A DNA stretch of 64,000 nucleotides, from positions 41,938 to 105,937 of the forward strand of contig CANQDU010000006.1 in NCBI GenBank assembly GCA_947593925.1, in the 5' to 3' direction. Source of the stretch: an uncultured Clostridia bacterium (GTDB lineage Bacteria > Bacillota > Clostridia > Oscillospirales > JAAYOS01). Numbering within the stretch: position 1 is the first letter of the stretch; each line of letters begins with the position of its first letter. The notes beneath the pieces are model-generated. The model saw only the letters and a list, made by a program, of their open reading frames with translations. It ran no database searches and was not told the DNA's origin. Shown here one piece after another: positions 9,619 to 48,210 of the stretch. The translations under genes were made by a program, and so were the position numbers.

Positions 9619-9647
9619 TTGATTTTTGCACCCGATTATGGTACACT
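9619..9647 (+). promoter_or_regulatory. Sigma-70-type promoter TTGATT-17-TACACT with TG extension, upstream of the methyltransferase/nuclease pair
   Basis: TTGATT (9619-9624), a 17-nt spacer, and TGgTACACT (9639-9647). It lies ~50 nt upstream of ATG 9698. Confidence 0.5.
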
Positions 9648-9697
9648 ATTATAAAAGAACACGACAATACATATCGAGAGCCGAAAGGACAGGAACG

Positions 9698-10822: not shown

Positions 10823-10823
10823 G

Positions 10824-11930
10824 ATGCAGATAGAAGAACTGAAAGTCACGGTCGGCGAGGTGTACGAGGGCTATTTCAATGACGCGGAGGAGGGTGTTGT
10901 CGGCTATAACGGACTGCTCGACATCCGCCCAAGGTATCAGCGGGAATTTGTATACAGGGACGCACAACGGGACGAAGTCATCCGCACGGTGATGAAGGGT
11001 CTGCCCCTCAATGTAATCTATTGGTGCAAGGTAAAGAAGGAGAACGGTTCCGAAGGGTTTGAGGTGCTGGACGGCCAACAGCGCACGATCTCCCTGTGCG
11101 AATATGTGGACGGGTCCTTCTCTGTAGACGATAAGTATTTCTACAACCTGCCGTCCGACCGGAAAGAGAAGATTTTGAACTACCCCCTGTTTGTATATGT
11201 CTGCGACGGCTCGGACAGCGAAAAGCTTGATTGGTTCCGCATCATCAATATTGCCGGGGAACAGCTCACCGATCAGGAGCTGCGGAACGCCGTCTATGCC
11301 GGCAGCTGGACTTCCGACGCAAAGCGGTATTTCTCCAAAACCGGGTGCGCCGCGGACACGCTGGCGGGCGATTATCTCAAGGGCGTTTCCATCCGGCAGG
11401 AATATCTCGAAACGGCGATATTTTGGGCGGCAAGCGCCGAGGGAAAGAGCATCGAAGGCTATATGGCGGAGCGTCAGGACCTCCCAAGCGCCGTGCAGCT
11501 CTGGAACTATTTCCGCTCGGTCATTGACTGGGTACAGGCCATTTTCCCGAAGAAGCGCAGGGAGATGAAAGGGCTGCCGTGGGGACTGTTCTATAACCGG
11601 CACGGCAAGCGGACAGACCTTGACCCGCGAAAGCTGGAGATTGAAATTCAGCGGCTGATGGGTGATGAGGACGTAACAAGGAAATCCGGCATCTATGAAT
11701 ATCTGCTGACCGGCGACGAAAGGAAACTGTCGATACGCGCTTTTGACCGGCGGGATGCTCTCGCGGCCTACGAAAAGCAAGGTCACAAATGCGCGATTTG
11801 CGGCGAAGCCTTCGAGTTTGAGGAGATGCACGCCGACCATATCACGCCATGGAGCAGGGGAGGCAAAACGACGCCGGATAACTGCCAGATGCTGTGCCGT
11901 GACTGTAATTTAAAGAAAGGCGCGCAGTAA
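10824..11930 (+). CDS. DUF262 (ParB/GmrSD-like N-terminal domain) plus C-terminal HNH nuclease
   Basis: 368 aa. It has the DUF262 hallmarks [10 protein letters not shown] and LDGQQR. The C-terminal HNH is [44 protein letters not shown]. The ATG lies 1 nt after the methyltransferase stop, with GAGGGAGG embedded in the upstream gene. Confidence 0.8.
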
Positions 11931-16047: not shown

Positions 16048-16896
16048 GCGGGGATTGCATCCCCACCCCTCTAGCGGGGAAGCCCCGCGAGCATTCGCGG
16101 GGTGACCCCCGCGTCCCTAAGTGAGGCAGAGCCTCACCGGTACCATGCGGGGGCTGCGCCCCCGCGCCCCGCGTTACTTTTTGCTTGTGCAAAAAGTAAC
16201 CAAAAAGCACACAAAGGGGAGAAAACCAACGGTTTTCTCCCCTTTGTACCCCTCTTTCCTTAATCGGAAAGGCTCTGCCACGCGGGACACCCGTGCGTAG
16301 CTTAGTACAAGCGTCCACGCTCATACTTTCCACTAGAACCGAAAGTCCCGTTTTCTCGGGATAGCCTCTGCATTACGCTTATAGTGTGAGCGTAGGACCG
16401 GACTTTTGTTTCTACTACGCAGGAACTGTTCGATGTCGTCGAATACAGTGGGAAAGTCGGATATTGTCACCCCGGAAACTCACCCGGTCGGACGATAGAT
16501 TTGTTCGATACGGAGTTATGCCCTGTTATGTGGGTCGTGGTGTTGTGTCTGTATTCAGGAGAGGGATTTTTAAGGGAGAGGGCGGAGCCCTCTCCCTTAA
16601 GCGCGCTTTTTGGATACTTTTTGCGCGAGCAAAAAGTAGCGCAGGGGTGCGGGGCGGCACAGCCCCGCGAAGGTAGTGGTGAGGCTCTGCCTCACTTAGG
16701 GACGCGGGGGTCACCCCCGCGAATGCTCGCGGGGCTTCCCCGCTGGATGGGTGTGGGCTTTGCCCACAGATGGGGTGCGGGGCGGCACAGCCCCGCGAAG
16801 GTAGTGGTGAGGCTCTGCCTCACTTAGGGACGCGGGGGTCACCCCCGCGAATGCTCGCGGGGCTTCCCCGCCGGAGGGGTGGGGCACAAGCCCCAC
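16048..16896 (-). repeat. Composite repeat element, copy A (inverted relative to copies B and C)
   Basis: The left arm (16048-16250) and right arm (16552-16896) are mirror-image arrays of short GC hairpins. The conserved ~300-bp core (16251-16551) aligns by hand with the reverse complement of 23161-23458 and 34400-34697. Confidence 0.85.
16644..16871. repeat. Tandem duplication (two identical 100-bp units, 128-bp period) inside the right arm of copy A
   Basis: The unit GGGGTGCGGGGCGGCACAGCCCCGCGAAGGTAGTGGTGAGGCTCTGCCTCACTTAGGGACGCGGGGGTCACCCCCGCGAATGCTCGCGGGGCTTCCCCGC occurs at 16644-16743 and again at 16772-16871. Confidence 0.9.
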
Positions 16897-22884: not shown

Positions 22885-22923
22885 TATTGTCTTTATTATG
22901 CGCACAAAAGCAGCGTATATCGC

Positions 22924-23747
22924 GGGCAGAGCCCATACCCGAATAGCGGGGAAGCCCCGCGGGTATTCGCGGGGGTGACCCCGCGTCCCTAGGTAGAGCG
23001 GAGCTCTACCGACACATTGCGGGGGCGCTGCCCCCGCACCCCCGGCGGGGCTGTGCCGCCCCGCACCCCTGCATTACTTTTTGCTCGCGCAAAAAGTAAT
23101 CAAAAAGCGCGCTTAAGGGAGAGGGCTTTGCCCTCTCCCTTAAAAATCCCTCTCCCAATACAGACACAACACCATTACCCACATAACAGGGCACACTCTG
23201 TATCCAACAAATCCATCATCCGACTGGGTGAGTTTCTGGGGAGAATATCAAACTTTCCTACTATATCGACGACATCGAACAGTTCCTGCGTAGTAGATAC
23301 AAAAAATTCGGTCCTACGCTCACACTATAAGCGTAATGCAGAGGCTATCCCAAGAAAACGGAACTTTCGGTTCTAGTGGAGAGTATGAGCGTGGACACTG
23401 ATACTAAGCTACGTACGGACGCCCTGCGTGGCAGAGACCTTCCGATTAAGGAAAGAGGGGTACAAAGGGGAGAAAACCTAAGGTTTTCTCCCCTTTGTGT
23501 GCTTTTTGGTTACTTTTTGCACAAGCAAAAAGTAACGCGGGGCGCGGGGATGCAATCCCCGCATGGTGCCGGTAGAGCTCCGCTCTACCAAGGACGCGGG
23601 GCTCGCCCCGCAGATTCCTGCGGGGCTTGCCCCGCAGATTCCTGCGGGGTCTTCCCCGCTATACGGGTGTGGGCTCTGCCCACTTGCCCGCGGGGCTTCC
23701 CGCTGGAGGGGGCACAGCCCCGCAAAAGGGGGCGGGCTTTGCCCGCT
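22924..23747 (+). repeat. Composite repeat element, copy B (same orientation as copy C)
   Basis: Hairpin-array arms are at 22924-23160 and 23459-23747, and the conserved core at 23161-23458. It fills the whole intergenic space between the hydrolase promoter and the stop codon of the large kinase. Confidence 0.85.
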
Positions 23748-23751
23748 GATT

Positions 23752-26700
23752 TTACTGCTCCTTGATGGCGTTTCCTCCCCATATGCCCTCGTTTATGAGC
23801 ACGAAATTGTTGATGCCGCCGGTGAAGATATTTCCGTTGTTGACAACTCTGCCGTAATTTCTCAGCTCGCCGTAAGAGAACTCCGTGCGAGCCTCGTTGG
23901 TAAACGTCGAGCCCGGGTCCAGAACCAGATTTCCGCCCACCCGAAGATGGCTGTGGTTGACAAACGAGCTGCTGATGCTGTAGTCATGACAGATCTCGCC
24001 GTCCAATGCCATATACCCGAAGTTTTCGACCGGAGCCGCCAGATGCGTTTTGGCGTTGAGGCTTACGGAACCGTAGTTTGTAAGCCTGCCCGGCCCCTGC
24101 GTGTCAAGGCCCGCGGCGATCAGCCGTCCCGCTTCCCCGATGACGATGTTGGCATTCGTACTCATGCTCGCGCTCAGGAGTATGCCGCCGCTGTCAACGG
24201 AGATCACGCTTCCGGCCTGCATTTCTACGGGAATAAGGGTATACGCCATAGAATTGTTCGTTACCGTCAACTCGCCGCAAAGGGTGATAAAGTTGCTGTC
24301 GTACAGCCGGGAGTCATCGGTGACGGTTATGGCGCCGCCGTTGAGGCGTATCGGCCCGTTAACTTCGCATGCGGAACCGCCGGAAATGACAAGGTCTCCG
24401 CCGCCCGTCAGATCCAGCCTCGGAACATTCTCATTAGGGTCATCGCCGCAGCCTACGGCCAGGAACGCCCCGTCCGTAATGCGGACTCCGCCGGCTCGGA
24501 CAATTCCTCCGCTGATATCTGCTATGCCTCCCGTGACCGTCAGCGTGCCGGTCACGTTCAGCGTGCCGGCGTAAACAGCGAGATCCGTCTCCACTGTCAG
24601 GTCGCCGTCTATCGTAATATCTCCTGCCACTTGGATGCCGTCGCTGCCGGACGCCATGGCAAGCAGCGTCTCCGCGTCGGTTACGGGAACAACCTCATTC
24701 TCTATCCATCTGCGCACGAACTGCCGGCAGTCCCCGTCCTTGTTGAGCGTGTCCCACGCGGCTGCGGCGTTTCCATCTTCATAGAAGACTATTCCGCCGT
24801 GTATCTGCCCGTCGCCGGAGGTGGCAACGCACCCGGCCGGGTCAGTAATCGTTCCGCTGACGTTTTTGAGATCGCCCGTTACCGTCGTGGGTCCGCAGCT
24901 TTTGATATTTCCGGAGTTCCAGCCGTTGCCAAAGACAGCCGTACCGAAGTTACAAACCGTCGAAGCGCCCTGCAGAGAGAAGCCGCCATTGTCAAAGTCG
25001 CCGCCCAGCTCAAGCTCGCCGATATTAAATACTGTGACGAATGCATCCAGCACGAACGCTAACCCTGCGTCTGCCCGGTGCTCCGGGTTTGCGGACAGCT
25101 TCCCGCAGTTTATCAGAAATCCCGAGTGGATGTTCAGGTTCTGCGGATACATGCCGCCCTGATTGAGTAAAAGGGGCATGTCCCAGAAGTCGATGTTGCC
25201 CATTTCTACTGCGGTTCCGTCGTTGACGGTCCCGCTGTTGACAAACAGGTCGCCTTCAAGCACATGTATTTTTATCGACTCGGATATGACGCCGCGGTTC
25301 ACCAGAGCACGGTTGATGAACAGATTCGCGTCGCCGGTGACGGTCGCGTTCTCGCTGATAAGGAGCGGGCCGCTGAAATAGTAATCACCGCTGAGGCTGA
25401 TGTCGCCGTCGATAGCGACCAGCCTGCCGCTTATCGCGGCGTTCCTGAGCACGCCCTCGTCCGTGACGTAGTCGGCGTTCTCAAAGGCTTTGTCCTCGTC
25501 TAAGACAAAGAAGTTCATATCGTCGGGCATCGGCGAGCCGTCCTCTATGGCAAAGTCGGAGCTGTCCGCGACCCACAGAACGATGCCCTCCGCAATGTAT
25601 CCGTCGCTCGTGCGTGTCAGCTTGCCGCCGTTGCGGGTGCGGATAAACCCACCCTCGCCTTCGACACGGTCGACAAGAAGACCCGACCCCTCGCCGTTCA
25701 CGGTGATAACTCCGCCGTTCAGCCTTAAAACGCCGTAAAATTCCGACTCGGCGGATATCTGCACGTCGCCGGAGGTCACCTCGCATCCGCCGTGTACGAC
25801 GACCGGCTTTGTGATGTTGAGCGACTCGTCCAGACGGAGAGCCTGGTCTCCGCTGTATACCACGGAGGAATACGCATTGTCGTCTGTCAGATACGCGATA
25901 AACTGATCCGCGTCGTAGGCGATAACTTCTCCGCCGTCGTTGCCGTTTGTGCCGCTGTCCGCCTGTTCTTCGCTGACCGGCTTGTGCGTAGGCACCGACG
26001 AATACGTTGACGTGGGCTCGGTAACCGGTGGCGCGCTCGGGCTTGCTTCACCTCTGCTGCCGAGAGTGATGCCGAGCGTCACGCCGAGCACCGCCAGAAC
26101 TGCCGCCGCCGCGGCGCCGATTTTGAAAATGAGATTTTTTCGGGGTTCAGGCGGCGGCACCTGCTTTTGCCATCCGGAGTAAAGCTTGACGTCCGATGTG
26201 ACCGTGAGCTCCTTCAGCGGCTTGGTGCAGGCCGAATCGGTGTACCATCCGAGGAAAGTGTACCCCTTCTTTATCGGAACGGGGAGCTCCGACGCCTTCA
26301 GCACGTCGCCCTTGGCGACAGAAAGCTCCGTATTCTCGTCCCCGCCGGTGAGGTAGACGGACACCACGCCCTCATAGAGCGCCGTGTGGAATTCCTTTGC
26401 GGACTGGAACCGTTCCCTCGGCTGTACCCTCAGAGCGCGCAGTATAGCCTGCTCCTGCCCCTGGGACAGCTCCGCGCCGAGCTTTCTCGGAGGGATAAGC
26501 TCGTCCTGGAAGAGGCGGTCCATGGCCTGAGGAGGCTTCTTGCCGGTGATACAGTAGTAAATGGTCGCCGCGAGCGCGTAGACGTCCGTCCACGCGCCCT
26601 GCGCGCCGCTCGAGGACTGGTACTGCTCCAGCGGCGCATATCCGTGCCGGAGCATGATGGTCATGGTGGCGTCGCCGTCTACCGCCTCGCGGGCGCACCC

Positions 26701-27360
26701 GAAGTCGAGCAGCTTGATTATGCCGTGCTCGAGCATGAGGTTATCCGGGCTGATGTCCCGATGGATAAGCCCCAGATCGTGCATGGCGGAAAGAGAATCA
26801 AAGAGCGGCTCGATTATGTGCAGCAGTTCCCACGCCGGCAATACGCCGCCCCGCTGCTTTGTCAGCTCGCTCAACGTCGTTCCGTCGATGAACTCCATGA
26901 CTATGTAGGCGGTGGAGTTCTCTTCAAAGAAGTCCCTGACGCCGACTATGTTCGGCAGCCGGTCCAGCCTCGCCATGGTTCGGGCCTCCTGCAGGAAGCG
27001 CTGTTTTCCGCGCTCGAAGAAGCTGTTATTCGAGCCCAGAAAGTTATCCACGTTGGTAGATACCGCGCTGTTTCTGGTGGCCTTGTCGGTGGGGAAGTAT
27101 TCCTTTACGGCCACCTTCAGGCCGAGGACCATGTCCCGGCCTATGTAGGTGATGCCGAAGCCGCCCTCTCCGAGGACCCTGCCAAGCATATATCGGTCCC
27201 GGAGCACCGTGCCGGCCGGCAGATGCTTCGGCTGCGCTACGTAGCTTCCCGCCGTGAGCCCGCAGCAGGGACACGGCTTATCGCCCTCCACCTGCGACAT
27301 GCAGTACGGGCAGTATTCCGCCTGCGCAGTGTTTCCGTGCTCTTCTATATCCGGAGTCAT
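23752..27360 (-). CDS. Membrane Ser/Thr protein kinase: N-terminal zinc ribbon, Hanks kinase, Listeria-Bacteroides-repeat-like module, TM, ~770-aa repeat-rich ectodomain
   Basis: 1202 aa. Motifs are CPYC..CPCC, the Gly loop GEGGFGITY, VAVKEY, HRDISPDN, DFG and GYAPLEQY. GYTFLGWYTDS occurs before the TM (IFKIGAAAAAVLAVLGVTLGITLG). The C-terminal part is rich in short G/N/V/T repeats suggesting a beta-helix. Confidence 0.85.
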   Translation of the reverse strand: MTPDIEEHGNTAQAEYCPYCMSQVEGDKPCPCCGLTAGSYVAQPKHLPAGTVLRDRYMLGRVLGEGGFGITYIGRDMVLGLKVAVKEYFPTDKATRNSAVSTNVDNFLGSNNSFFERGKQRFLQEARTMARLDRLPNIVGVRDFFEENSTAYIVMEFIDGTTLSELTKQRGGVLPAWELLHIIEPLFDSLSAMHDLGLIHRDISPDNLMLEHGIIKLLDFGCAREAVDGDATMTIMLRHGYAPLEQYQSSSGAQGAWTDVYALAATIYYCITGKKPPQAMDRLFQDELIPPRKLGAELSQGQEQAILRALRVQPRERFQSAKEFHTALYEGVVSVYLTGGDENTELSVAKGDVLKASELPVPIKKGYTFLGWYTDSACTKPLKELTVTSDVKLYSGWQKQVPPPEPRKNLIFKIGAAAAAVLAVLGVTLGITLGSRGEASPSAPPVTEPTSTYSSVPTHKPVSEEQADSGTNGNDGGEVIAYDADQFIAYLTDDNAYSSVVYSGDQALRLDESLNITKPVVVHGGCEVTSGDVQISAESEFYGVLRLNGGVITVNGEGSGLLVDRVEGEGGFIRTRNGGKLTRTSDGYIAEGIVLWVADSSDFAIEDGSPMPDDMNFFVLDEDKAFENADYVTDEGVLRNAAISGRLVAIDGDISLSGDYYFSGPLLISENATVTGDANLFINRALVNRGVISESIKIHVLEGDLFVNSGTVNDGTAVEMGNIDFWDMPLLLNQGGMYPQNLNIHSGFLINCGKLSANPEHRADAGLAFVLDAFVTVFNIGELELGGDFDNGGFSLQGASTVCNFGTAVFGNGWNSGNIKSCGPTTVTGDLKNVSGTITDPAGCVATSGDGQIHGGIVFYEDGNAAAAWDTLNKDGDCRQFVRRWIENEVVPVTDAETLLAMASGSDGIQVAGDITIDGDLTVETDLAVYAGTLNVTGTLTVTGGIADISGGIVRAGGVRITDGAFLAVGCGDDPNENVPRLDLTGGGDLVISGGSACEVNGPIRLNGGAITVTDDSRLYDSNFITLCGELTVTNNSMAYTLIPVEMQAGSVISVDSGGILLSASMSTNANIVIGEAGRLIAAGLDTQGPGRLTNYGSVSLNAKTHLAAPVENFGYMALDGEICHDYSISSSFVNHSHLRVGGNLVLDPGSTFTNEARTEFSYGELRNYGRVVNNGNIFTGGINNFVLINEGIWGGNAIKEQ

Positions 27361-27520
27361 AAAGTGCTTCGTCCTCCCTTTCTGGTGAATTCAGACGCCG
27401 TGCGGCGGCGTCCGGCCCGGAGAAGGCCCCGCCGGACATGCGGATGCGTGCCGGCAGATCGTCTGTCCGGGCGCGGAGCGCCCGCCGGTCTTCCGTTTAC
27501 GGCATGCCGGATACCGCGCC

Positions 27521-28606
27521 TCAGGACGTCGCTATAAGTCCGATGGCGGCAGCAAGGACCGCCACGGCCGCTATCACGCCTGCGATCAACTGTCCACGGT
27601 ACTTTACGTACCACGGCACCGGAGGCGGAGGCGGGGGCGGAGCTATTGCGCTGAGAAGGGCATTTTTGAACTCGGCCATGGTCTGATACCGGTCCGTGGG
27701 ACGTATGGCCAGCGCCTTGCGGAACACGGCCTTCTGTGCCTCCGTAAGGCAGTCGGGAAGGAACAGAGGATCCGGTTGACCTTGGGTAGTTGCGGAAAGG
27801 CGCTCTGAGCAGTCAGTAGGAGCGCTGCCGGTCAGGCAGAACAGCATAGACGCCGCCAGAGTGTAGACGTCGGAGTAGAAGCCCGCGGGTCCCAAGACGG
27901 TTGTGGCCTGCTCGATGGGCGCGTATCCGGGCTTGAAGAAGCCCGTCATAGCTTTGTCTACCGGCCTTGCGGAGCCGAAATCCGTCAGGCACAGCTCGCC
28001 GTTCGGCATGAGCATGATGTTGTCAGGGCATATATCCCTGTGTACCATGCCTTTGCTGTGTATCCACGTTATGCCGTCCATAAGAGGAAGCATCTTCGGG
28101 AAGAGCTCCTGCGGCGCCATTTTTCCGTCCGGGCGGGCGCGGACTGCCTTGTAGAGCGGCTGCCCGGAGATAAACCCCAGGATCAGATACGCCGTTCCGT
28201 TGGCCTCCAGATAGTCCACGCCCTTGACGATGCTTGCCGGGCCGTTGTCAAGCTTTGCGACCATCTTGGCCTCCTTGAGGAAGCTCATGCGCCCTTGGTT
28301 ATAGGCGTCTTCCGTACGGTTTGCGGCGTACACGGTAACGCCGTCCTTGTCACGCTCCGCCCAGCGGTGATTGCCCCTTGAGGGAAAGTATTCCTTGATG
28401 GCAACTTCCTGCTTGGTCCTTTTATCGGTTCCCCGGTAGGTTATACCGAAGCCGCCCTGACCGAGGACGCCGCCGACCCAGTATGTCGCGTCTCCGCTGC
28501 CGATGACCGTTCCGACAGGGAGAGCGGGCGGCAGATTTGCTCCGCAGTGGGGACAGACCGGCTGAGCAGGAGTGTCAAACTCGCGGCCGCATTTCGGACA
28601 TTTCAT
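27521..28606 (-). CDS. Tail-anchored Ser/Thr protein kinase with N-terminal zinc ribbon
   Basis: 361 aa. Motifs are CPKCG...CPHCG, GQGGFGITY, VAIKEY, HRDICPDN, DFG and GYAPIEQ, followed by a PPPPPPVPW linker and a C-terminal TM (LIAGVIAAVAVLAAAIGLIA). Confidence 0.85.
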   Translation of the reverse strand: MKCPKCGREFDTPAQPVCPHCGANLPPALPVGTVIGSGDATYWVGGVLGQGGFGITYRGTDKRTKQEVAIKEYFPSRGNHRWAERDKDGVTVYAANRTEDAYNQGRMSFLKEAKMVAKLDNGPASIVKGVDYLEANGTAYLILGFISGQPLYKAVRARPDGKMAPQELFPKMLPLMDGITWIHSKGMVHRDICPDNIMLMPNGELCLTDFGSARPVDKAMTGFFKPGYAPIEQATTVLGPAGFYSDVYTLAASMLFCLTGSAPTDCSERLSATTQGQPDPLFLPDCLTEAQKAVFRKALAIRPTDRYQTMAEFKNALLSAIAPPPPPPPVPWYVKYRGQLIAGVIAAVAVLAAAIGLIATS

Positions 28607-28609
28607 TTT

Positions 28610-29986
28610 TTATACGCCCCCCTTTGTGCTCACGGTGAATGACTGATTGTTCGAGCCCAGAGCTATCACGTCGCCTACATGCAGTACGGTCGGAACGTTC
28701 GGCGGGATGCGCTGTCCGTTCACGTAGGTGCCGTAGGTCGAGCCGAGATCCGTAACGGTCAGAGACCCGGAGTTCAGCGAGACCGCCGCGTGAACGTGGC
28801 TGACGCCGGGCGTCCTGTCTGGGAATTGGAGACCGTTCGGGCCGGGATCCACGCCTATTCGGACGTACTGCCCCTCATTCACGGCGAAGCGCCTTCCCGC
28901 GAAAACGCCGGCGGTGCCCTGCAGGCGGACGGCTCCGATGATGACCGTTGGGTCGCCGGCCGGCTTATCCTTTCCGCCCTTATCTTTCTTGGTAAGGACG
29001 ACGATAAGCACCACGGCTCCGGCGAGAACCGCGGCGCCTGCGGCGATTATCACTACCCAAAGCCACGTAGAGTCATGGTAGATGTCGTACTTTATGTGCA
29101 GATCATCAAGGATGTCCGGCAGGAAATCTGCCTCGATGGAGAAGAAGTAGTTCTGGCCGTCGCTCTGAGTTCCCCAGGTGTTGATACCCACTACGGCGCC
29201 GTGCTTGTCAATAAGCGGGCCGCCGGAGTTTCCGTAGTTCATGGACGCGGTATGCTGGATAACTCTTACACGCGCGCCGTTGTTATCCGTCGTGGTGGAG
29301 TGAAGGCTGACGGTTCCGTTGGTGACGGTGACACGTTCCACGCTTCCGTAATAGTTTTGAAATCCGTAGCTGTCGCTGACGAAATCCTCCGTGGCTGAGG
29401 GGTATCCCAGCGCCCAGACCTCTTCTCCGGACTCTATCGAATCGTTCGGATCATGCAGCGGCAGCGCCTTGCGTCCCGCGACCGGCTCCGCGGCCTTTAT
29501 CACGGCAAGGTCCGGCTCGTCAAGTTCGGACTTGTACAGGAGATCGCAGGGTACGGCGCGGCTTGTATCTATCTCATTGGTGGCGCTCATTGCAAAGTCG
29601 TCCAACAACAGGTAAATGCGGGATACCGAGGCGGTATAGTAGCATGCGTTACCGTAAATATCATAGTCAAGATCCGCTATATCAGTCATCAGATGACGGT
29701 TGGTCACGAAATACTGCGTCTCCTTGCCGGTCTTTCCGATGCCGGTTCCGCTGCCTAAAGCCATTAATCTCTCATTTACTTGCGTCGGATCCTCTTCGAC
29801 ACCCACAATATTGTCATAGTCGTCAAAGATAAGCGGGTAATAACTCTCTATGTACACGACGGCAACGCGCACAACGCCGTTTCGGTTGGCGCTGCCCGTA
29901 TTGCCGGAGGAACAGCCGGCGAGAGCGACAGTTATCATGCACAGCGCAAGGATTGTGCAAATGACCCTCTTTATATCGGTTTTCAT
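28610..29986 (-). CDS. Lipoprotein-anchored trypsin-like (S1) serine protease - TM - cytoplasmic FHA domain fusion
   Basis: 458 aa. It has a lipobox (VALAGCSS) and a protease region with the Ser motif GNSGGPLIDKHGAVVGINTWG. A TM (WLWVVIIAAGAAVLAGAVVLIVVL) is followed by a C-terminal FHA (GR..., VSHVHAAV, TDLGSTYGTYVNG). The stop lies 3 nt before the next gene's ATG. Confidence 0.8.
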   Translation of the reverse strand: MKTDIKRVICTILALCMITVALAGCSSGNTGSANRNGVVRVAVVYIESYYPLIFDDYDNIVGVEEDPTQVNERLMALGSGTGIGKTGKETQYFVTNRHLMTDIADLDYDIYGNACYYTASVSRIYLLLDDFAMSATNEIDTSRAVPCDLLYKSELDEPDLAVIKAAEPVAGRKALPLHDPNDSIESGEEVWALGYPSATEDFVSDSYGFQNYYGSVERVTVTNGTVSLHSTTTDNNGARVRVIQHTASMNYGNSGGPLIDKHGAVVGINTWGTQSDGQNYFFSIEADFLPDILDDLHIKYDIYHDSTWLWVVIIAAGAAVLAGAVVLIVVLTKKDKGGKDKPAGDPTVIIGAVRLQGTAGVFAGRRFAVNEGQYVRIGVDPGPNGLQFPDRTPGVSHVHAAVSLNSGSLTVTDLGSTYGTYVNGQRIPPNVPTVLHVGDVIALGSNNQSFTVSTKGGV

Positions 29987-30001
29987 ATCCTTTCCCCTTT
30001 C

Positions 30002-30715
30002 TTATATGTCTATCCAGACTGCGGCGGCGGAGTTGTTGTCGTTGCCCTCGCTTACCTTTGAGGCAAGACGTTTCCTCATCCTTGCTATCCAGTCCTCCGG
30101 GTCCTTTGCCGCGCGGAGATCCTTTGCCATCTCTTCCTCCAGCACGTACTCCCAGAACCCGTCGGTGCACAGCAGAAACGCCGTTCTCCCCGGCAGAAGG
30201 TCGCAGGAGCCGGTCTCCACCTTCAGATCCGTGTCCTGCCCCAGGGCGCGGAGCACCCTGTTGCGGTCGGGGTGAAAGCGCAGTTGATCAGGGGTTATCT
30301 GGCCGAGCATCACGCCGATCTGAGCGGAGGAGTGGTCCGTCGTCTGGAACTCCAGCTTGCCGTCGCGGAACCGATAGAGCCGCGAGTCGCCGTCGTGAGC
30401 CCAGACGGCGCGCCCAGGCATGGCCGTCAAAGCCACCACGGTGGTCTTCATGCTGCACTGGGGCGTCTGAATGGCAAGAACGGCTTCGTTGGCGGCGAGG
30501 ACAAGGTTTGTAAGAACGTCCTTGTCCACCTGACCCGCCCAGCGGCCGCAGATAAGCTCGGCCGCCCGGGCGGAGGCCAGTTCGCCGCCGCCGTGGCCGC
30601 CGAGTCCGTCCGCCACCACCGCGCAGATCCTTTCCTCGCCGTGTCTGACCGCCATTACGGTATCTTCGTTGTTGGCACGACCTCCGACATTTGAATATGT
30701 GGCGATTTTGAACAT
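30002..30715 (-). CDS. PP2C-family Ser/Thr phosphatase (soluble)
   Basis: 237 aa. Motifs are NEDT, VADGLGGHGGGELAS and LCTDGFWEYV. The ATG overlaps the upstream stop (TAATG). Confidence 0.85.
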   Translation of the reverse strand: MFKIATYSNVGGRANNEDTVMAVRHGEERICAVVADGLGGHGGGELASARAAELICGRWAGQVDKDVLTNLVLAANEAVLAIQTPQCSMKTTVVALTAMPGRAVWAHDGDSRLYRFRDGKLEFQTTDHSSAQIGVMLGQITPDQLRFHPDRNRVLRALGQDTDLKVETGSCDLLPGRTAFLLCTDGFWEYVLEEEMAKDLRAAKDPEDWIARMRKRLASKVSEGNDNNSAAAVWIDI

Positions 30716-31980
30716 TATTTTCTCCTTTCGGACTTTCGTGAGCTGTCTTCCACCGAAAGTATGACGGCGGTATAGTTGTCCTGATTTGTATAGCCCTTGG
30801 CGGCCACCGCTTTCTTGACGGCATCCGCCGGCGCGCTGTCCGAGAGTGCCGCTGCGAGCTCACTGTCAGTCAAAGCGTTATACACTCCGTCCGTCATGAG
30901 CACCAGCTTATCCCCGGGGTGAAGGTCTATGGGCGACGTGGGCATATCGACATACTTTATATCTCCCATGCCCAGATAGCTGGTAAGTCCGCCCTTCTTC
31001 GGGTGCTTGTAGACGTCGCTTATCTGCGCGGAGCCGCTGACGGCCTGAGCCGCGAGCTCGTATTTGTAGGTGTGTTCGCGGTTGAGCTTATACAGGTCTC
31101 CGTTTCTGTACAGGCATATACGGCTGTCTCCCACGCTGACAAAGGAGAACTTCATGTCGCGCAGAAGACCCATCACAATTGTCGAACCGCTCCGCTTGAG
31201 GCCGCCCGGCCCGAGCAGACCGTCTACGGCCGATACGGCTTTCTTCAGAAGCTCCAGAAGTACGTTCTCGGCGGAGCCGGAGACCGTGAAGAAGCCGTTG
31301 AGCGCCGCGGAAGCGGCGGCCTGACTGACCTGATCCCCGTGCTCGAGACCGCCCATGCCGTCGGCCACCACCGCCAAAACGCCCTGCTTGTCGACAAATT
31401 CGGTGGGTGACACACCGAAGCAGTCCTGCTGATCTTTTCTTGCGCCCTGTCCGTGGAGCTTGTAGGCTTTGACCGTTATTTTTCCGGTCGGTGTCTTGGC
31501 CTTGCGGCTCTTTCTGAGGGCTCGCCGTATCAGCGAGACGATGAGCGCCGCGAGAAGTGCCGCCGTCACGCCGGCCCCGGCGCATATTCCTCCGAAGGCC
31601 GCCGGATGCTGTGCGGCAAAGTCAATGATCTGCCCGGCAAACGTCTGCGTGCCGGTCGTATTTTCGGACTCATTGCCGTCTGCATCTCCGGTTTCTTCGA
31701 CGGCGCCGTCGGTGTCGCCGGTAGCATTTTCGAGCGCCCCGGCGTCTGCGGAGCTCTCCGCACCGGGCGGAGCTGCCGGCGCGGTCGGAGGAGCATCCGA
31801 CGCGGCTGGCGGAGTCACCGGCGCGGTCGGAACGGCATCCGGCACGTCGGGCAGAGCTGCCGGCACGGTCGGAACGGCGTCCGGCACGTCGGGCAGAGCT
31901 GCCGGTGCGGTCGGAATGACATCCGGCAGGTCGGGAGAGGGCGATACGTCCGGGAACCGGGAACTATCCATATTGCTCAT
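30715..31980 (-). CDS. PP2C-family Ser/Thr phosphatase with Pro-rich repeat N-terminus and one TM
   Basis: I chose the start at ATG 31980 (MSNMDSS), which overlaps the upstream stop (ATGA). It has a TM (ICAGAGVTAALLAALIVSLI) and the PP2C motifs VADGMGGLEHGDQVS and LMTDGVYNAL. Confidence 0.8.
   Translation of the reverse strand: MSNMDSSRFPDVSPSPDLPDVIPTAPAALPDVPDAVPTVPAALPDVPDAVPTAPVTPPAASDAPPTAPAAPPGAESSADAGALENATGDTDGAVEETGDADGNESENTTGTQTFAGQIIDFAAQHPAAFGGICAGAGVTAALLAALIVSLIRRALRKSRKAKTPTGKITVKAYKLHGQGARKDQQDCFGVSPTEFVDKQGVLAVVADGMGGLEHGDQVSQAAASAALNGFFTVSGSAENVLLELLKKAVSAVDGLLGPGGLKRSGSTIVMGLLRDMKFSFVSVGDSRICLYRNGDLYKLNREHTYKYELAAQAVSGSAQISDVYKHPKKGGLTSYLGMGDIKYVDMPTSPIDLHPGDKLVLMTDGVYNALTDSELAAALSDSAPADAVKKAVAAKGYTNQDNYTAVILSVEDSSRKSERRK
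31825..31935. repeat. 42-bp tandem repeat (about 2.6 units) encoding the DAVPTxPAALPDVP repeat of the membrane PP2C
   Basis: Units are at 31825-31866 and 31867-31908, with a partial unit at 31909-31935. The two full units differ at only a few positions. Confidence 0.85.
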
Positions 31981-32612
31981 TTGCCCTGTTCTCCCGTCTC
32001 CCAATTGAACTTCTCACAGCAAAGCGGGACAAATATAAGCGTGGTGGCGGAGCCGATGGAGATGGTGTCGTAGGCGTGGATCTCAACGGTGTTGAGAACG
32101 GTCTTGTTGTTGACCTTCACAAGGTTCCGTCCGCCGGCAGGCCCGAAGTAGTAGGCAAGCTCGCTGCTGTCAAAAGCTATCATGGCGTGACTCTCCCGGG
32201 AAATCTGGTCGTCGCCGTGGATGCATATATCGCCGGTGGTGCGGCCTATGTAGTTGTATCCGGCATGGATGCGGTAGTCCTCGCCGTAGTTGGGACCCTT
32301 GATGCATACCAGCCATCCGACCACGGGGTCGCTGCCGCCGACGGGACCGGCGATCTCCGTTTCCACAAATCCCTCGCCGGTTCTGCCGCCGGGGGCGAAG
32401 GTGATGGACTCGGTGGCGCCGGGGACGCCGCCGATGGGCTCGGTGCCGGTCATACCGCCGATGGGTTCGGTGACGCCGGGAACGCCGCCGTTGGACTCGA
32501 CAGACGGGGCCGAACCGGCCGATTTTGCTCCGCATCTGGGGCAAACCTTGTATTTCGCTGTATCGAAGGGATGGCCGTTGGTGCAGTAGGTCATTGTGGT
32601 TTTGGCTTCCAT
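31977..32612 (-). CDS. Zinc-ribbon plus FHA domain protein
   Basis: I chose the start at ATG 32612 (MEAKTTMTYCTNGHPF..CPRCG), preceded by GGGAGGAAAA. It has a Gly/Thr/Pro repeat linker (GVPGVTEPIGGMTGTEPIGGVPGATE) and a C-terminal FHA (IGR..., ISRESHAMIAF, LVKVNN). Confidence 0.8.
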   Translation of the reverse strand: MEAKTTMTYCTNGHPFDTAKYKVCPRCGAKSAGSAPSVESNGGVPGVTEPIGGMTGTEPIGGVPGATESITFAPGGRTGEGFVETEIAGPVGGSDPVVGWLVCIKGPNYGEDYRIHAGYNYIGRTTGDICIHGDDQISRESHAMIAFDSSELAYYFGPAGGRNLVKVNNKTVLNTVEIHAYDTISIGSATTLIFVPLCCEKFNWETGEQGK

Positions 32613-34100: not shown

Positions 34101-34995
34101 GCGGGGCCGTGAGCGCCGCGTCCCTAGGTGAGGCAGAGCCTCACCGACACCTTCGCGGGGCTTTGCCGCCCCGCACCCATCTAGCGGGGAAGCCCCGCAG
34201 GAATCTGCGGGGCGAGCCCCGCGTCCCTGTTACGGGGTAAAACCCCGTATGAATATGCGGAACCTGGCGGTTCCGAGACCTTCGCGGGGCTGTGCCGCCC
34301 CGCACCCCTGCGTTACTTTTTGCTCGCGCAAAAAGTAACCAAAAAGCGCGCTTAAGGGAGAGGGCTCCGCCCTCTCCCTTAAAAATCCCTCTCCCAATAC
34401 AGACACACAACCGCAACCCTCATAGCAGGACCCACTCTGTATCCAACAAATCTATCGTCCCACCGGGTGAGTTTCTGGGGAGAACATCAAACTTTCCAAC
34501 CGTATTCGACGACATCGAACAGTTCCTGCGTAGTAGAAATAAAAATCCGGTCCTACGCTCACACTATAAGCATAATGCAGAGGCTATCCCGAGAAAACGG
34601 AGCTTTCGGTTCTAGAAGAAAGTATGAGCGGGAAAGCCTGTGCTAAGCTACGGACGGACATCCCACGTAGCAGAGACTTTCCGATTAAGGAAAGAGGGTA
34701 CAAAGGGGAGAAAACCGTGGTTTTCTCCCCTTTGTGTGCTTTTTGGTTACTTTTTGCACAAGCAAAAAGTAACGCGGGGCGTGGGGATGCAATCCCCGCA
34801 TGGCGCCGGTAGAGCTCCGCTCTACCAAGGACGCGGGGCTCGCCCCGCGGATGCCCGCGGGGTCTGCCCCGCTAGGGGGTGGGGGGCACATGCCCCACAT
34901 CTGCCCGTGAGGCTCTGCCTCACTTCAGGACGCGGGGTCTCGCCCCGCGAATACTCGCGGGGCTTCCCCGTTATACGGGTGCGGGGCAATGCCAT
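34101..34995 (+). repeat. Composite repeat element, copy C (same orientation as copy B)
   Basis: Hairpin-array arms are at 34101-34399 and 34698-34995, and the conserved core at 34400-34697. It lies between the island promoter and the rhaB promoter region. Confidence 0.85.
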
Positions 34996-37860: not shown

Positions 37861-39009
37861 ATGGCAGATCGCATCGTTCTGAACACTATTTCATACCACG
37901 GCAAGGGCGCTCTTGAGAACATCCTGCCCGAGCTCACCGGCAGAGGCTTTACGAAGGCCTTTGTCTGCTCCGACCCGGACCTCATCAAGTTCGGCGTGAC
38001 GGGAAAGGTCACGGACCTGCTTGACAAGGCCGGCTTCCCCTACGAGGTATACAGCGACATCAAGGCAAATCCGACGATAGAGAACGTGCAGCACGGCGTC
38101 GAGGCGTTCGGCAAGAGCGGCGCGGACTGCATCGTCGCCGTCGGCGGCGGCAGCGCCATGGACACGGCGAAGGCTATCGGCATCATCGCGACGAACCCGG
38201 AGTTTGCGGACGTCCGCTCACTCGAGGGCGTCGCGCCGACGAAGAACCACGCCGTCTTCACCATCGCCGTCCCGACGACCGCCGGCACCGCCGCCGAGGT
38301 CACGATAAACTACGTCATCACCGACGTGGAGAAGAAGCGCAAGTTCGTCTGCGTGGACACGCACGACATCCCGGAGGTCGCGGTCGTAGACCCGGACATG
38401 ATGAGCACCATGCCGAAGTCGCTCACCGCCGCCACCGGCATGGACGCGCTCACCCACGCGATAGAGGGCTACATCACCAAGGGCCACTGCGCGATATCCG
38501 ACATGTTCCACCTCGAGGCGATACGCCTCATCTCGACGCACCTGCGCGGCGCGGTCGAGAACACCCCGGAGGGACGCGAGGGCATGGCGCTCGGCCAGTA
38601 TATCGCGGGCATGGGCTTCTCGAACGTCGGCCTCGGCATCGTTCACTCGATGGCGCACGGCCTCTCCGCGCTGTATGACACGCCGCACGGCGTCGCCTGC
38701 GCGATAATCCTTCCGACCGGCCTCGAGTACAACGCTCCGGTCGCGGGCGGGCGCTACCGCGCCGTCGGCCGCGCGATGGGCGTCGAGGGTATAGACGGCA
38801 TGTCCGACGAGGACGCCGCGAAGGCGACGATAGCCGCCGTCAAGCAGCTCTCCAAGGACGTCGGCATCCCGACCGACCTCAAGGGCATCCTCAAGGAGGA
38901 GGACGTGCAGTTCCTCTCCGAGAGCGCCTATGCCGATGCGTGCTGCCCCGGCAACCCGCGCGACACCTCCGTCGAGGAGATAGCGGCGCTCTACCGCTCG
39001 ATGATGTAA
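37861..39009 (+). CDS. fucO: Lactaldehyde reductase (iron-containing alcohol dehydrogenase)
   Basis: 382 aa. NPEFADVRSLEG, PTTAGTAAEVTINYVITD..K.RKFVCVD and DALTHAIEGYIT match E. coli FucO as I recall it. Confidence 0.9.
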   Translation: MADRIVLNTISYHGKGALENILPELTGRGFTKAFVCSDPDLIKFGVTGKVTDLLDKAGFPYEVYSDIKANPTIENVQHGVEAFGKSGADCIVAVGGGSAMDTAKAIGIIATNPEFADVRSLEGVAPTKNHAVFTIAVPTTAGTAAEVTINYVITDVEKKRKFVCVDTHDIPEVAVVDPDMMSTMPKSLTAATGMDALTHAIEGYITKGHCAISDMFHLEAIRLISTHLRGAVENTPEGREGMALGQYIAGMGFSNVGLGIVHSMAHGLSALYDTPHGVACAIILPTGLEYNAPVAGGRYRAVGRAMGVEGIDGMSDEDAAKATIAAVKQLSKDVGIPTDLKGILKEEDVQFLSESAYADACCPGNPRDTSVEEIAALYRSMM

Positions 39010-39010
39010 T

Positions 39011-39035
39011 TACGAAGTAAACTTCGTAGTTTTTT
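39011..39035 (+). terminator. Intrinsic terminator after fucO
   Basis: Stem TACGAAGT / ACTTCGTA followed by GTTTTTT, starting 2 nt after the stop codon. Confidence 0.7.
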
Positions 39036-39113
39036 GCGGGGCGACCCCGCGTCCCTGAGTGAGTCAGAGCCTCACTTATGGACGCGGGGTCGCCCCGCGA
39101 AGCTTTGCTTCGC
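39036..39113. repeat. Solo palindromic unit of the GC-hairpin repeat family
   Basis: GCGGGGCGACCCCGC-GTCCCTGAGTGAG-TCAGAG-CCTCACTTATGGAC-GCGGGGTCGCCCCGC, followed by the GCGAAGC-TTT-GCTTCGC hairpin. The modules are the same as in the arms of copies A-C. Confidence 0.8.
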
Positions 39114-39147
39114 AAATAAAAAACGGCGGGTTTTGCCCGCAAAAACA

Positions 39148-39337
39148 GCGGCGAAAACCTGCCAAATCCTCTACTTTTTTGTAAAACGATTCATTCATCG
39201 CTTTGCCCATATTATAGCACGCTCAAATTGAAAATGCTAGTCTTTTTTCATAAAAATTTTAGCAAATTTTCGACTCGGAAAACCCTCTCCAATATTTGCG
39301 AAAAAGTAGAGATTTTGGCAGGAGGACTTTTCGCCGC
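39148..39337. promoter_or_regulatory. Inverted-repeat-flanked 120-bp AT-rich segment carrying an extended -10 promoter (candidate invertible promoter)
   Basis: IR-L (39148-39180) is GCGGCGAAAACCTGCCAAATCCTCTACTTTTTT. The reverse complement of IR-R (39301-39337) is GCGGCGAAAAGTCCTCCTGCCAAAATCTCTACTTTTT. That gives 10/10 plus 20/22 matches with one 5-nt indel. TGCTATAAT lies on the minus strand at 39211-39219, pointing away from the SLH gene at 39560. Confidence 0.5.
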
Positions 39338-39559
39338 CGGACGGCGTTTGCTCCCGTCCCTTCAGAGAGCCGGAGGGACGGGAGGAGGCGCTTTCCTCAT
39401 TAGCGGCTCCGTCTCCTTTCAGAGTCTGCCCGGACAGCGCGTGGCTGCGGCTTGCCGTTGCCGCCGCCCCCACTGTTCGGGCGGAAAGAAAAAAGGAACG
39501 AATGCCGCAGGAAAGTCCCCACAATACTTCAAACAGAATGTGAAAGGAGTACAATTACT

Positions 39560-41659
39560 ATGCGTAAGAAAGTACTGGCATTAGTGTTGGCGTTGGTCAT
39601 GGTTATCGCCATGCTTCCGACGGTGGCGTTCGCCGCGGACTTCGCCGACACGAAGGGCCACTGGGCTGAGACCCAGATCGACCGTTGGAGCGACTTCGGC
39701 GTCGTCGGAGGCGACGGCACCGGCTTCAACCCGAACGGCAGCATGACCCGCGCACAGGCGGCCCAGGTTTTCGTCAATCTTCTGAAGCTGACGAAGGCCG
39801 GCGACATCACCGCCTATACCGACGTTCCCGCCACCGCGTGGTATGCCGACGCGATAAGCAAGGTCGTCGAGAAGGGCATCATGAACGGCGTGAGCGCCAC
39901 GACGATGAACCCGGAAGGCACTCTCACCCGCGAGCAGATGTTCGTCATGATCGGCCGCGCGCTCGGCGTCAAGCCGGTCGAGACCGCCACGAAGACCTTC
40001 GTTGACGGCAAGGAGACCTCCGATTGGGCCACCGGCTACATAAACGCGCTTGCCGACATGGGCGTCATCCACGGCACCGGCAACAACGAGCTCAATCCGA
40101 CCGACGTCATCAACCGCGCGAGCGTTATGACCGCGCTCGACAACCTCATCGGCGGCTACGCGAACGAGGACGGCCAGACCGTCGAGATTCAGGAGGGCAA
40201 GATAACCCTTATCGTCGCTGACGACGTCAAGGTCACAGGCGAGGCTGACCCGGATATGCCGATAGTCGTCGCGGGCGCGGCGAAGACCGTCGACCTCGAG
40301 GGCGTCACCGTCACCGGCGAAGAGGCTCCCGTGGTTCAGGTTCAGGTCGAGGAAGTTGCCATAGAGAACGCGCCGGAGGGCACGAACGTTGCCGCTCCTG
40401 CCGAGGCTACCGACGTCACCGTCAACGGTGAGACCGTCGAGGCCGGCAGCACCGCCGAGGCTCCCGCTCCCGAGGCCGAGCAGACCGCTCCGTCCCAGCA
40501 GGGTACGACTCCGGTTCCGCAGCCGGCTCCGGCTGAACCGACGCCGTCTGAGCACAAAAATGAGGCCGAGGCAGCTATGAACGCTGCGTGGGAAGCTCTT
40601 GATACTGCTCTTGACGACATGGGTGAACTCGTTGTGGCTTCTCAGAGCAATGGCACTTATACTCTCACCATCAATTTTGATAAGCTTACGTCCACCGATA
40701 AGGTTCTTGACGGTGACGGTCACGGACTTGCCACCGCAATCGGCGAGGCGCTGAAAACGCACCTCAATGGTATCTCCCTGACTGTCGGCGGTGAGGATGT
40801 CTACACTGCCGAGGGCAAGTTCAATAACACCGCGCTTAAGCATGCTCTGTTCACCGTTGCCGGTGGCTTCTTCTATGATCTCGGTAATCTCCCCGAGAGC
40901 GGAGAGTTCAGATCCGTTGAGGGTACTGCCACTGCCAACAATTGCACACAGAGTGACAAGTGCACGTATGATGTTACCCTTAAGGTCGTGCTCACAGGCG
41001 AAAAACTCACTCGCGTCAAGGATTTTGCGAAGAAACTTTCCGATTATGTGTCCATGACTAAGATCAACGCGAGCGATGTTGCTAGTAAGTATGGCACGAT
41101 TCAAGGTCTCACCGGCGAATCCGAGTACATTGTCGTTTGCCTTGATAAGCTTCCCCAGACCCTTCTCACTAAGGTAGGTCAGGCTTATCGTGGTGACAGT
41201 GCGCAGACAGCTTTTGAGGGTGCTTCTGTTGAAGCGCTTTTGACCCTCCTGGCACAGCAGACAATGGACGGCAGCCTCGCCGAGATTGAGACGCTTGCTA
41301 GGATGATCAACACCAATGAAGGCCTTATCGATACCGTACTTGGCCACGTTTCCGCGAAGGTGCTTGTTGGCGGCGAGACTAAGGATCTTATTACCATGGG
41401 CTCCAATTATACTCCTTACGCCGGTTCAGTTACTGATTTTGCTAAGTTGGTCAAGGGCGTTAATGCGCTCCTCACCAGCGATGCCAAGTCCCTGAAGCCC
41501 AGCCAGTTCAAGGTCACACAGGGATCGACGACAGGCAAGTATATTGTTCCTGTTACCGTCCACATTGACCTCGAGTCTTCTCTCGGTTTCACGGCTGATG
41601 AGACGATACTGGTAGAGCTCAATATTGACCTCTCCTCCGTGAATACTTCCGGAAAATAA
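39560..41659 (+). CDS. Surface protein with N-terminal SLH (S-layer homology) domains
   Basis: I chose the start at ATG 39560 (MRKKVLALVLALVMVIAMLPTVAFA signal peptide) after AAAGGAG. There are three SLH-like repeats (FADTKGHWAETQIDRW..., YTDVPATAWYADAISKVVEKGIMNG..., FVDGKETSDWATGYINALADMGVIHG...). A Pro/Ala/Glu linker and an unassigned C-terminal half follow. Confidence 0.85.
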   Translation: MRKKVLALVLALVMVIAMLPTVAFAADFADTKGHWAETQIDRWSDFGVVGGDGTGFNPNGSMTRAQAAQVFVNLLKLTKAGDITAYTDVPATAWYADAISKVVEKGIMNGVSATTMNPEGTLTREQMFVMIGRALGVKPVETATKTFVDGKETSDWATGYINALADMGVIHGTGNNELNPTDVINRASVMTALDNLIGGYANEDGQTVEIQEGKITLIVADDVKVTGEADPDMPIVVAGAAKTVDLEGVTVTGEEAPVVQVQVEEVAIENAPEGTNVAAPAEATDVTVNGETVEAGSTAEAPAPEAEQTAPSQQGTTPVPQPAPAEPTPSEHKNEAEAAMNAAWEALDTALDDMGELVVASQSNGTYTLTINFDKLTSTDKVLDGDGHGLATAIGEALKTHLNGISLTVGGEDVYTAEGKFNNTALKHALFTVAGGFFYDLGNLPESGEFRSVEGTATANNCTQSDKCTYDVTLKVVLTGEKLTRVKDFAKKLSDYVSMTKINASDVASKYGTIQGLTGESEYIVVCLDKLPQTLLTKVGQAYRGDSAQTAFEGASVEALLTLLAQQTMDGSLAEIETLARMINTNEGLIDTVLGHVSAKVLVGGETKDLITMGSNYTPYAGSVTDFAKLVKGVNALLTSDAKSLKPSQFKVTQGSTTGKYIVPVTVHIDLESSLGFTADETILVELNIDLSSVNTSGK

Positions 41660-47412: not shown

Positions 47413-48210
47413 TCACTCCTCCACCGGCACGACCAGCCGGGAGACGTAGTTCTTCGGGTCGATCTCCCGCCCGGTGTAGGGGGCGACAAGACTCATGGCG
47501 CGGACGTAGTCCGCAGGCTTCAAGCCGCGTTCCCGGATCTCCCGGCCCAACTCGTTGAAGGCGTAGGCTCTGCGGGAGTAGTCCCCGTAGCCCAGGCAGG
47601 AGAAGCCCCGGCAGGCGGGGAAGGTCACCGCCTCCTCCGGCGGCTCGTCCGAATCCAGCGGGATACAGCAGATAAAGTCCACCTCTTTGTCCTCAAAAGC
47701 GCCGTCCAGATAGTCGGTGCGCTTGTTGATGATAAAAAGCGGCTCGGACGCAAGCAGACGATACCCCTTCTCCACCGCCTCGTGGTAGAGGCTGTACATG
47801 GCCCAATAACGATCCTCCGGCGTTGTTCCGCGGAACTCCCGGCAGAAGCAGACGTACTCCGGCAGATCCACAAACTCAAAGCTCAGATAATCCTTCTTTT
47901 CCACCCGGAGCTTTATTTCCTCATAGGCACGCTTGAACAGCAGGAACCGCTCCTCGGTATGCTCCAGAAGCTCCTGCGACTCCCCGCCCTCGCGGTAGTA
48001 GAGGGCGGCGTCGTCATACGTGAGACCCATCTGCAAAAAGGACTGTATCTGCATGACCCGGCTGACGTTGTAGTTGTCATACCAGCGGTAGCCGGTCTCG
48101 CTGTCCACCTTGGCGGGGACGAGCAGGCCTCGGTTCTCAAGACGCATGAGAGTGGAGCGGGACACTCCGCAGCTCCTGCCCACCTGATTTATTGTAAATA
48201 GTTTCTCCAA
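47413..48210 (-). CDS. MerR-family transcriptional regulator with GyrI-like (effector-binding) C-terminal domain
   Basis: This is the C-terminal 265 codons of the 1165-aa track ORF. I propose a TTG start at 48210, with GGAAGG 8 nt upstream. The N-terminal MerR HTH is FTINQVGRSCGVSRSTLMRLENRGLLVP...GYRWY, followed by a coiled coil and a ~150-aa GyrI-like domain. The start codon is uncertain. Confidence 0.75.
   Translation of the reverse strand: MEKLFTINQVGRSCGVSRSTLMRLENRGLLVPAKVDSETGYRWYDNYNVSRVMQIQSFLQMGLTYDDAALYYREGGESQELLEHTEERFLLFKRAYEEIKLRVEKKDYLSFEFVDLPEYVCFCREFRGTTPEDRYWAMYSLYHEAVEKGYRLLASEPLFIINKRTDYLDGAFEDKEVDFICCIPLDSDEPPEEAVTFPACRGFSCLGYGDYSRRAYAFNELGREIRERGLKPADYVRAMSLVAPYTGREIDPKNYVSRLVVPVEE

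Follow-up and report, generated by a model that had tools for sequence, protein, structure and literature searches.

Does the intergenic region between fucO and the gene for an SLH-domain surface protein contain a promoter that can be turned around, and thus decide whether the latter gene is expressed? The earlier note proposed an invertible promoter at this place, assembled in its off orientation. Comparison with related loci supports the proposal, since three of six distinct copies of the region are inverted, including those of a sister species (L011) and of a paralogous locus (L020). The region is likely to be an inverton, in which a promoter is inverted as in fimS. The window, as we call the whole 64-kb stretch of DNA that was analysed, contains the features listed in Table 1.

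Table 1. Features of the switch region and of one further regulator gene; positions are those of the window.
Feature	Position	Strand	Remarks
fucO	37861-39009	+	Same strand as the SLH gene; lactaldehyde-reductase-type Fe-ADH
Terminator-like hairpin	39116-39140	-	GCGGGCAAAACCCGC then CGTTTTTTAT; 8 nt outside the left arm
IR-L, left inverted-repeat arm	39148-39185		Recombination site 39159-39184; invariant core CTCTACTTTT, 39169-39178
Invertible interior	39179-39301		123 bp, AT-rich; equal length in 6/6 copies
Extended -10 element	39211-39219	-	TGCTATAAT; directed away from the SLH gene as assembled
Conserved A/T-rich block	39231-39260	-	AAAATTTTTATGAAAAAAGACTAGCATTTT; 12-41 nt upstream of TGCTATAAT, from the alignment of copies
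IR-R, right inverted-repeat arm	39295-39337		Recombination site 39296-39321, a perfect match to the family consensus; core AAAAGTAGAG, 39302-39311
5' leader	39338-39559	+	GC-rich, structured; common to paralogues
SLH-domain surface protein gene	39560-41659	+	699 aa, three SLH domains
MerR-like regulator	47413-48210	-	N-terminal helix-turn-helix, judged from the ORF translation; hidden in a long spurious ORF

The inverted repeat around an AT-rich segment in GC-rich DNA was recovered as the earlier note described it. The arms pair over 28 nt at 39158-39185/39295-39322 (86% complementary in the repeat search) and over ten of ten positions at 39148-39157/39328-39337, the two pairings being divided by a 5-nt indel in the right arm. 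GC content is 0.34-0.42 inside the segment versus ~0.65 around it, and the segment is bounded by inverted repeats on both sides. A 22-nt arm pattern finds only these two sites in 64 kb (≤3 mismatches; 0.00 expected from shuffles), and the 26-nt site consensus described below gives the same outcome.

Related assemblies yielded six distinct copies of the switch, and an SLH-protein gene follows each of them. Paralogous loci were reached through homologues of the window SLH protein, for which an exact-protein lookup returned no record, and L011 was found by scanning species-representative genomes with the arm pattern. The four further matches of that scan were due to chance, leaving L011 as the sole true relative; the single matches of a metagenome scan with the conserved interior pattern (on a contig of 38% GC) and of a viral scan with the site consensus were also dismissed as chance. 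The promoter points away from the gene, as in the window, in three copies (window/L001-3, L022 and L021/L023) and toward it in the other three (L020, L024 and L011/L025). Among the six copies, interior identity is 0.69-0.98 when orientations are matched versus 0.50-0.59 when they are mismatched. Two further contigs, L026 and L027, end ~200 nt upstream of the gene and thus give no information on the switch. Three paralogous copies (L020 2557-2590, L022 1252-1285 and L023 2554-2590) share the conserved motif CAATCAAATTTTGYATTTTGA, located 20-30 nt beyond the left arm; it is absent at the fucO locus.

Two comparisons are the most direct. L011, a MAG of a sister species of uncultured Clostridia (Lapin-004__bin9), contains the positional orthologue of the window locus, and L025 represents the same locus. 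Its rhaB-rhaA-fucO region is ~95% identical to that of the window and the flanks are collinear, with window positions 39160-39322 aligned in the opposite direction and the TGCTATACT element directed at the SLH gene. L020 is a paralogous locus from sample ERZ27249419, which is also the source of the window-type contig L003, at similar coverage. Identity of L020 to the window is 98.5% in the right flank, and the two interiors can be matched only in reverse (92.8% by BLAST and 98% over the central 107 nt). Since the two interiors differ at just 2/107 positions and yet lie in opposite orientations, the flip must be recent. Inverting the window in silico between the two cores gives the L020 arrangement almost base for base. 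In ERZ27249419, three copies are found on separate contigs with coverage of 7.0, 7.4 and 6.3, in the off, on and off states, respectively; they are independent switches within one genome. At the window locus, the off junction joins the left flank (…GCCCGCAAAAACAGCGGCGAAAACCTGCCAAATC) to CTCTACTTTTTTGTAAAACGATTC, and a flipped (on) junction would join the same flank to CTCTACTTTTTCGCAAATATTGGAG / CTCTACTTTTTCGCAAATATTGG. Both orientations are thus seen against fixed flanks, with breakpoints in the repeats, between orthologous as well as paralogous loci.

These orientations bear on the fallback explanation of the earlier note, that the inverted repeat is only an RNA or terminator structure. The region does fold strongly (-67 kcal/mol, z = -7.4), as a hairpin, terminator or attenuator in read-through or leader RNA would, but any inverted repeat yields such a fold. 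An RNA element is not expected to be inverted relative to its gene, as the interior was found to be, and no T-run follows the right arm. A hairpin does not account for the inversion. An artefact of assembling repeats, the other way to explain the region without a switch, is unlikely because the orientation of each locus is reproducible across independent assemblies and the longest perfect repeat is 26 bp. Taken together, an RNA structure or an artefact is scarcely credible as the explanation of this region.

Alignment of the copies also places the breakpoints. In all six copies, exactly 123 bp separate the two 10-bp cores, which are invariant in 12/12 arms, while the remaining sequence diverges to ~70-80% identity. 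The outer arm halves keep their side in both states, including a 5-nt insertion present only in the right arm, and the inner arm ends swap sides, the ATCGTTTT end being exchanged for the CAATATTTGCG end. Since the outer halves stay with the flanks and the interior flips, the breakpoints fall inside the core or directly next to it, and this pattern, as read from the aligned copies, is the signature of strand exchange at that position. It also distinguishes the switch from a MITE-like element with terminal inverted repeats that was inserted either way upstream of SLH genes, an origin suggested by the length of ~190 bp, the terminal inverted repeats and the occurrence of multiple copies in both orientations. 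A mobile element would move as a whole and leave a target-site duplication, but here the interior alone flips and no such duplication is visible at 39147/39338. Moreover, every copy is accompanied by the leader and the SLH anchor, with which it forms a larger conserved module, and the orthologous fucO locus would require excision followed by exact re-insertion. We regard this origin as highly improbable.

The recombination site has the 26-bp consensus TTGCSAAAA-AGTAGAGR-TTTTGGCAG (also written TTGCSAAAAAGTAGAGRTTTTGGCAG), with 9-bp half-sites in dyad symmetry around an asymmetric centre. In a dyad test, 7-8 of the nine positions are complementary across the 8-bp spacer in nine of 12 arms, and 5-6 in the other three. 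Tyrosine recombinases need homology across a 6-8 bp overlap region, and, in the manner of lox, FRT and dif, the sites described here combine inverted half-sites with an asymmetric overlap of such length that is identical in the partners. Because the asymmetric centre of 7-10 bp is identical in both partner sites, the recombinase is most likely of the tyrosine class, although the site may possibly also be read as a 12-2-12 serine-type site. The distance between the site centres, 143 bp, is short for synapsis and was counted against the reading as an invertible switch.

The enzyme itself is presumably encoded elsewhere. No recombinase Pfam domain was detected in the 38 window ORFs, including a lenient re-scan of those without hits, which upholds the statement of the earlier note that the window has no recombinase gene. 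The arrangement of Hin/Gin-type serine invertases, with the invertase gene and an enhancer inside or next to a segment of kb size, was not found either, as the 123-bp interior contains no gene and no resolvase domain is present in the window. A separate observation comes from L028, where positions 1-800 contain a homologous SLH gene and leader after a different inverted repeat, ATCACAAAACAACAATTT, with arms matching at 18/18 bp, 229 nt apart, and a third partial copy at 484-505. Immediately next to this switch, at the contig edge, lies the 3' end of a gene for a tyrosine recombinase; the C-terminus GHSSIETTRIYL, a 50-aa fragment, matches PF00589 (E=0.0023). Therefore, invertible regions recur before genes of this SLH family, in at least one case with an associated tyrosine enzyme.

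The state of the window locus within its own species was followed in contigs from seven samples, collected by exact-protein lookups of fucO and rhaA. The window and six same-species contigs all fit the off arrangement as far as they extend; four contigs span the full switch, and two Logan contigs, L005 and L006, cover only IR-L and ~30 nt of the interior. The same locus in both states within one species was not found among the assemblies compared. The Logan contigs end at 39212 and not at 39198, where an abundant flipped variant of the window locus would create a branch. We considered these ends as a sign of mixed orientation and rejected this, since 39212 marks the last 31-mer absent from the L020 paralogue and is explained by the repeat family. 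For these two samples, the lack of a break at 39198 weakly suggests a rare on variant. Coverage is ~3-7x in the assemblies of the window species and of the single-copy paralogues, and because consensus assemblies at this depth show the majority state only, a minority orientation is invisible in them.

The constant orientation per locus in all same-species assemblies, the absence of flipped-minority signs in the two Logan assemblies and the lack of a recombinase among the window ORFs are what one would expect if the inversions were fossil or rare evolutionary events, produced by homologous (RecA-type) recombination, with no programmed switching by a recombinase today. The depth of the assemblies tempers the first two points. 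In addition, perfect repeats within the arms, by inspection, are only 11-26 bp long (26 bp in the L024 arms), which is short for RecA-type recombination, and the core and the 123-bp spacing are invariant while their surroundings diverge. The internal dyad symmetry of the arms is typical of recombinase sites, and the near identity of the window and L020 interiors in opposite states implies a recent flip. Thus, fossil inversions are an unlikely explanation, and switching driven by a recombinase would still be under way.

What is inverted appears to be a promoter. The earlier note described a minus-strand extended -10 element within the segment, aimed away from the SLH gene, and the same consensus at several other promoters of the window; both observations hold. 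TGNTATAAT occurs five times in the window versus 0.27 expected (~18-fold enrichment). Four of these copies lie on the + strand, and each is followed 13-75 nt downstream by the start of a listed + strand ORF (these ORFs were taken as genes); the fifth, within the repeat-bounded segment, is the sole one in the window that is aimed at no gene. Across the six switch copies, the element reads TGCTATAAT in four, TGTTATAAT in L024 and TGCTATACT in L011, with one substitution in each of the latter two. The conserved A/T-rich block covers the -35 position (TAGCAT), which is poor, and a stretch resembling an UP element; judging from its position, it may contribute to promoter function. The first ~30 transcribed bases, GGGCAAAGCGATGAAnGAATCGTTTT, are largely conserved when the copies are oriented alike. 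A related SLH locus, L017 (protein 65% identical), has no inverted repeats and carries a fixed TTGAAA-17-TGCTATACT promoter aimed at the gene, ~260 nt upstream of the ATG (L017 2700-2760), with VanW/SASP neighbours. Since L017 carries a similar, fixed promoter at the equivalent place, the assignment of the segment element as the putative promoter of the SLH gene is supported.

Other candidate promoters of the SLH gene fared poorly. From IR-R to the ATG, a single promoter-like match was found, TTCAAA-16-TACAAT at 39528-39555; it overlaps the ribosome-binding site and the L023 copy does not retain its -10, in agreement with the earlier note that no other convincing promoter precedes the gene. 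A plus-strand match within the segment (TTGAAA-18-AAAAAT, 39228-39257) was discounted, its -35 not being conserved in L021/L023. A switch of the cwpV type would have the promoter upstream of the segment; no + strand promoter-like site was found left of IR-L, and this type does not apply because the conserved promoter motif sits within the segment. A second off-state inverton was considered at 48285-48257 (-), where a strong promoter precedes the gene for a 3322-aa SLH protein, and was rejected because no repeats flank this promoter. This near-consensus promoter (TTGACA-17-TATTAT) belongs to the MerR-like gene, which is divergent from the 3322-aa SLH protein gene at 48391.

The element could also serve a minus-strand small RNA of ~90 nt, running from the TGCTATAAT promoter at 39219 to the terminator at 39140-39116, with the repeats being incidental or part of an RNA structure. 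The promoter-like element and the minus-strand terminator are suitably spaced for this and the start of the transcript is largely conserved, but the same promoter faces the SLH gene in 3/6 copies, where the downstream sequence is wholly different. Rfam gave no relevant match in the region or in the whole window, and such an RNA would simply be a by-product of the off state. We therefore consider a small RNA very unlikely as the function of the segment.

The promoter inversion switch would then operate as follows. A recombinase encoded elsewhere in the genome would exchange strands inside the invariant core and flip the segment. In the on state, the promoter would read through the right site and the ~250-nt structured leader into the SLH gene. 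In the off state, which is that of the window, it would read leftwards and meet the terminator-like hairpin. The T-run of this hairpin is present on the minus strand only, suggesting that leftward transcripts would be stopped there before they run antisense into fucO. The leader may add a further layer. In it, CUCCUUUC (in 39413-39428) can pair with the ribosome-binding site GAAAGGAG (in 39534-39549), and the consensus fold of six paralogues has 73 predicted pairs, 14 of them with compensatory changes. Based on this predicted fold, the leader is possibly a second, post-transcriptional control or an mRNA-stability element.

Several other elements were observed in the window. Directly after the fucO stop, positions 39033-39101 form a hairpin with a 31-bp stem and no T-run after it on the + strand. 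It belongs to a REP-like family (GTCCCTnnGTGAGnCAGAGCCTCAC core) found beside noncoding, multi-copy elements of ~800 bp. The latter are located at 16050-16890 (reverse orientation), 22920-23690 and 34110-34990 of the window, and also at L011 540-1260, L024 1-560 and L025 1-200. Their core of ~330-430 nt has ~70% of aligned columns identical in copies from two species and a terminator-like hairpin at its end. The ends are 56-nt inverted repeats with the palindrome GTTACTTTTTGC-NNNN-GCAAAAAGTAAC, and GC-rich REP-like hairpins are arrayed in the flanks. For GCAAAAAGTA, 12 occurrences were counted in the window versus 0.03 expected. Searches of the ~800-bp element against Rfam gave no match, and RNAalifold shows little covariation in it. 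The palindrome and the switch site have CAAAAAGTAG in common, which may possibly link the two. Further afield, an EcoRI-type adenine methylase adjoins a GmrSD/HNH nuclease (9626-11930), and two Ser/Thr kinases, a trypsin-FHA protein and two PP2C phosphatases are clustered at 23752-32004.

The switch can be compared with several known systems. In fimS of E. coli, inverted by the tyrosine recombinases FimB/FimE, the segment is 314 bp long with 9-bp repeats, and the recombinase genes adjoin it. As in fimS, the putative window promoter lies inside a short segment between short inverted repeats, and would read into a surface-structure gene when on and away from it when off. Unlike fimS, the window switch has a 123-bp interior, 26-bp dyad sites and no recombinase nearby, and sites of this type are reused at several loci. 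In Bacteroides, the serine recombinase Mpi is the global invertase of capsular-polysaccharide promoters, and S-layer lipoprotein promoters of B. thetaiotaomicron are phase-variable. Common to these invertons and the present family are many loci with one repeat consensus and presumably one trans-acting enzyme, which would give combinatorial surface variation in a gut bacterium. The differences are the phylum, the present host being a high-GC member of Clostridia, the site sequence, its tyrosine-like form and the SLH-anchored nature of the proteins. In Campylobacter fetus, the choice of S-layer-type protein depends on inversion of the sap promoter: homologous recombination turns round a multi-kb segment that separates two opposed sap genes. 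By contrast, the left neighbour of the window switch, fucO, is on the same strand and each gene would be turned on or off separately.

In C. difficile, the flagellar switch is ~154 bp long, and the promoter precedes the cwpV and flgB switches, which affect whether transcripts are elongated or terminated. Unlike these two, the window switch has its putative promoter inside the segment, and its protein carries an SLH anchor versus CWB2 in CwpV. Switches of C. difficile that depend on RecV include cwpV, flgB and cmr (PMC2784873, PMC5386303, PMC5903667). The RecV/cwpV system, whose small switches are flipped by a tyrosine recombinase encoded in trans, is the nearest Firmicute analogue of the present one. 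CwpV is anchored to the cell wall and consists of a conserved anchor and a variable C-terminus (PMC3080850), an architecture also seen in the window SLH family. The repeats of C. difficile switches are mostly unrelated to one another (PMC5903667), whereas the window-family copies have one common site. Phase variation of S-layers has been discussed (PMC12548429), and gene-altering inversions with SLH proteins in their vicinity have been noted (PMC9881135). A full-text search of the literature on invertible promoters and invertons with S-layer terms found no description of the switch reported here.

The window switch is apparently part of a multi-locus family that controls SLH surface proteins. 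A module made up of the switch, the leader (~250 nt) and the gene half encoding the SLH anchor is found before several genes whose C-terminal halves differ. Because the same module precedes several paralogous SLH genes, one invertase could vary the repertoire of surface proteins combinatorially. Tentatively, and with somewhat less than even confidence, we suggest a genome-wide regulon of such small invertons (143 bp centre to centre), in which a single distant master recombinase would act on one 26-bp site, each inverton would gate a different SLH-anchored protein built from the common switch/leader/anchor cassette and a variable C-terminal domain, and the leader masking the ribosome-binding site would be a second control layer. 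Phase variation of surface coats affects how gut bacteria resist phages, evade the immune system and colonise, and the examples known in detail are mostly from Bacteroides and a few pathogens. The present family adds a sequence-defined switch for SLH-anchored proteins in an uncultured, high-GC lineage of Clostridia. Its site consensus and the on and off reference junctions allow quantification at the read level in metagenomes and a search for the cognate recombinase, and contigs of paralogues and sister species can substitute for read-level evidence where raw reads are missing. If the regulon exists as suggested, Firmicutes would have an equivalent of the Bacteroides Mpi system that serves protein coats in place of polysaccharide ones.
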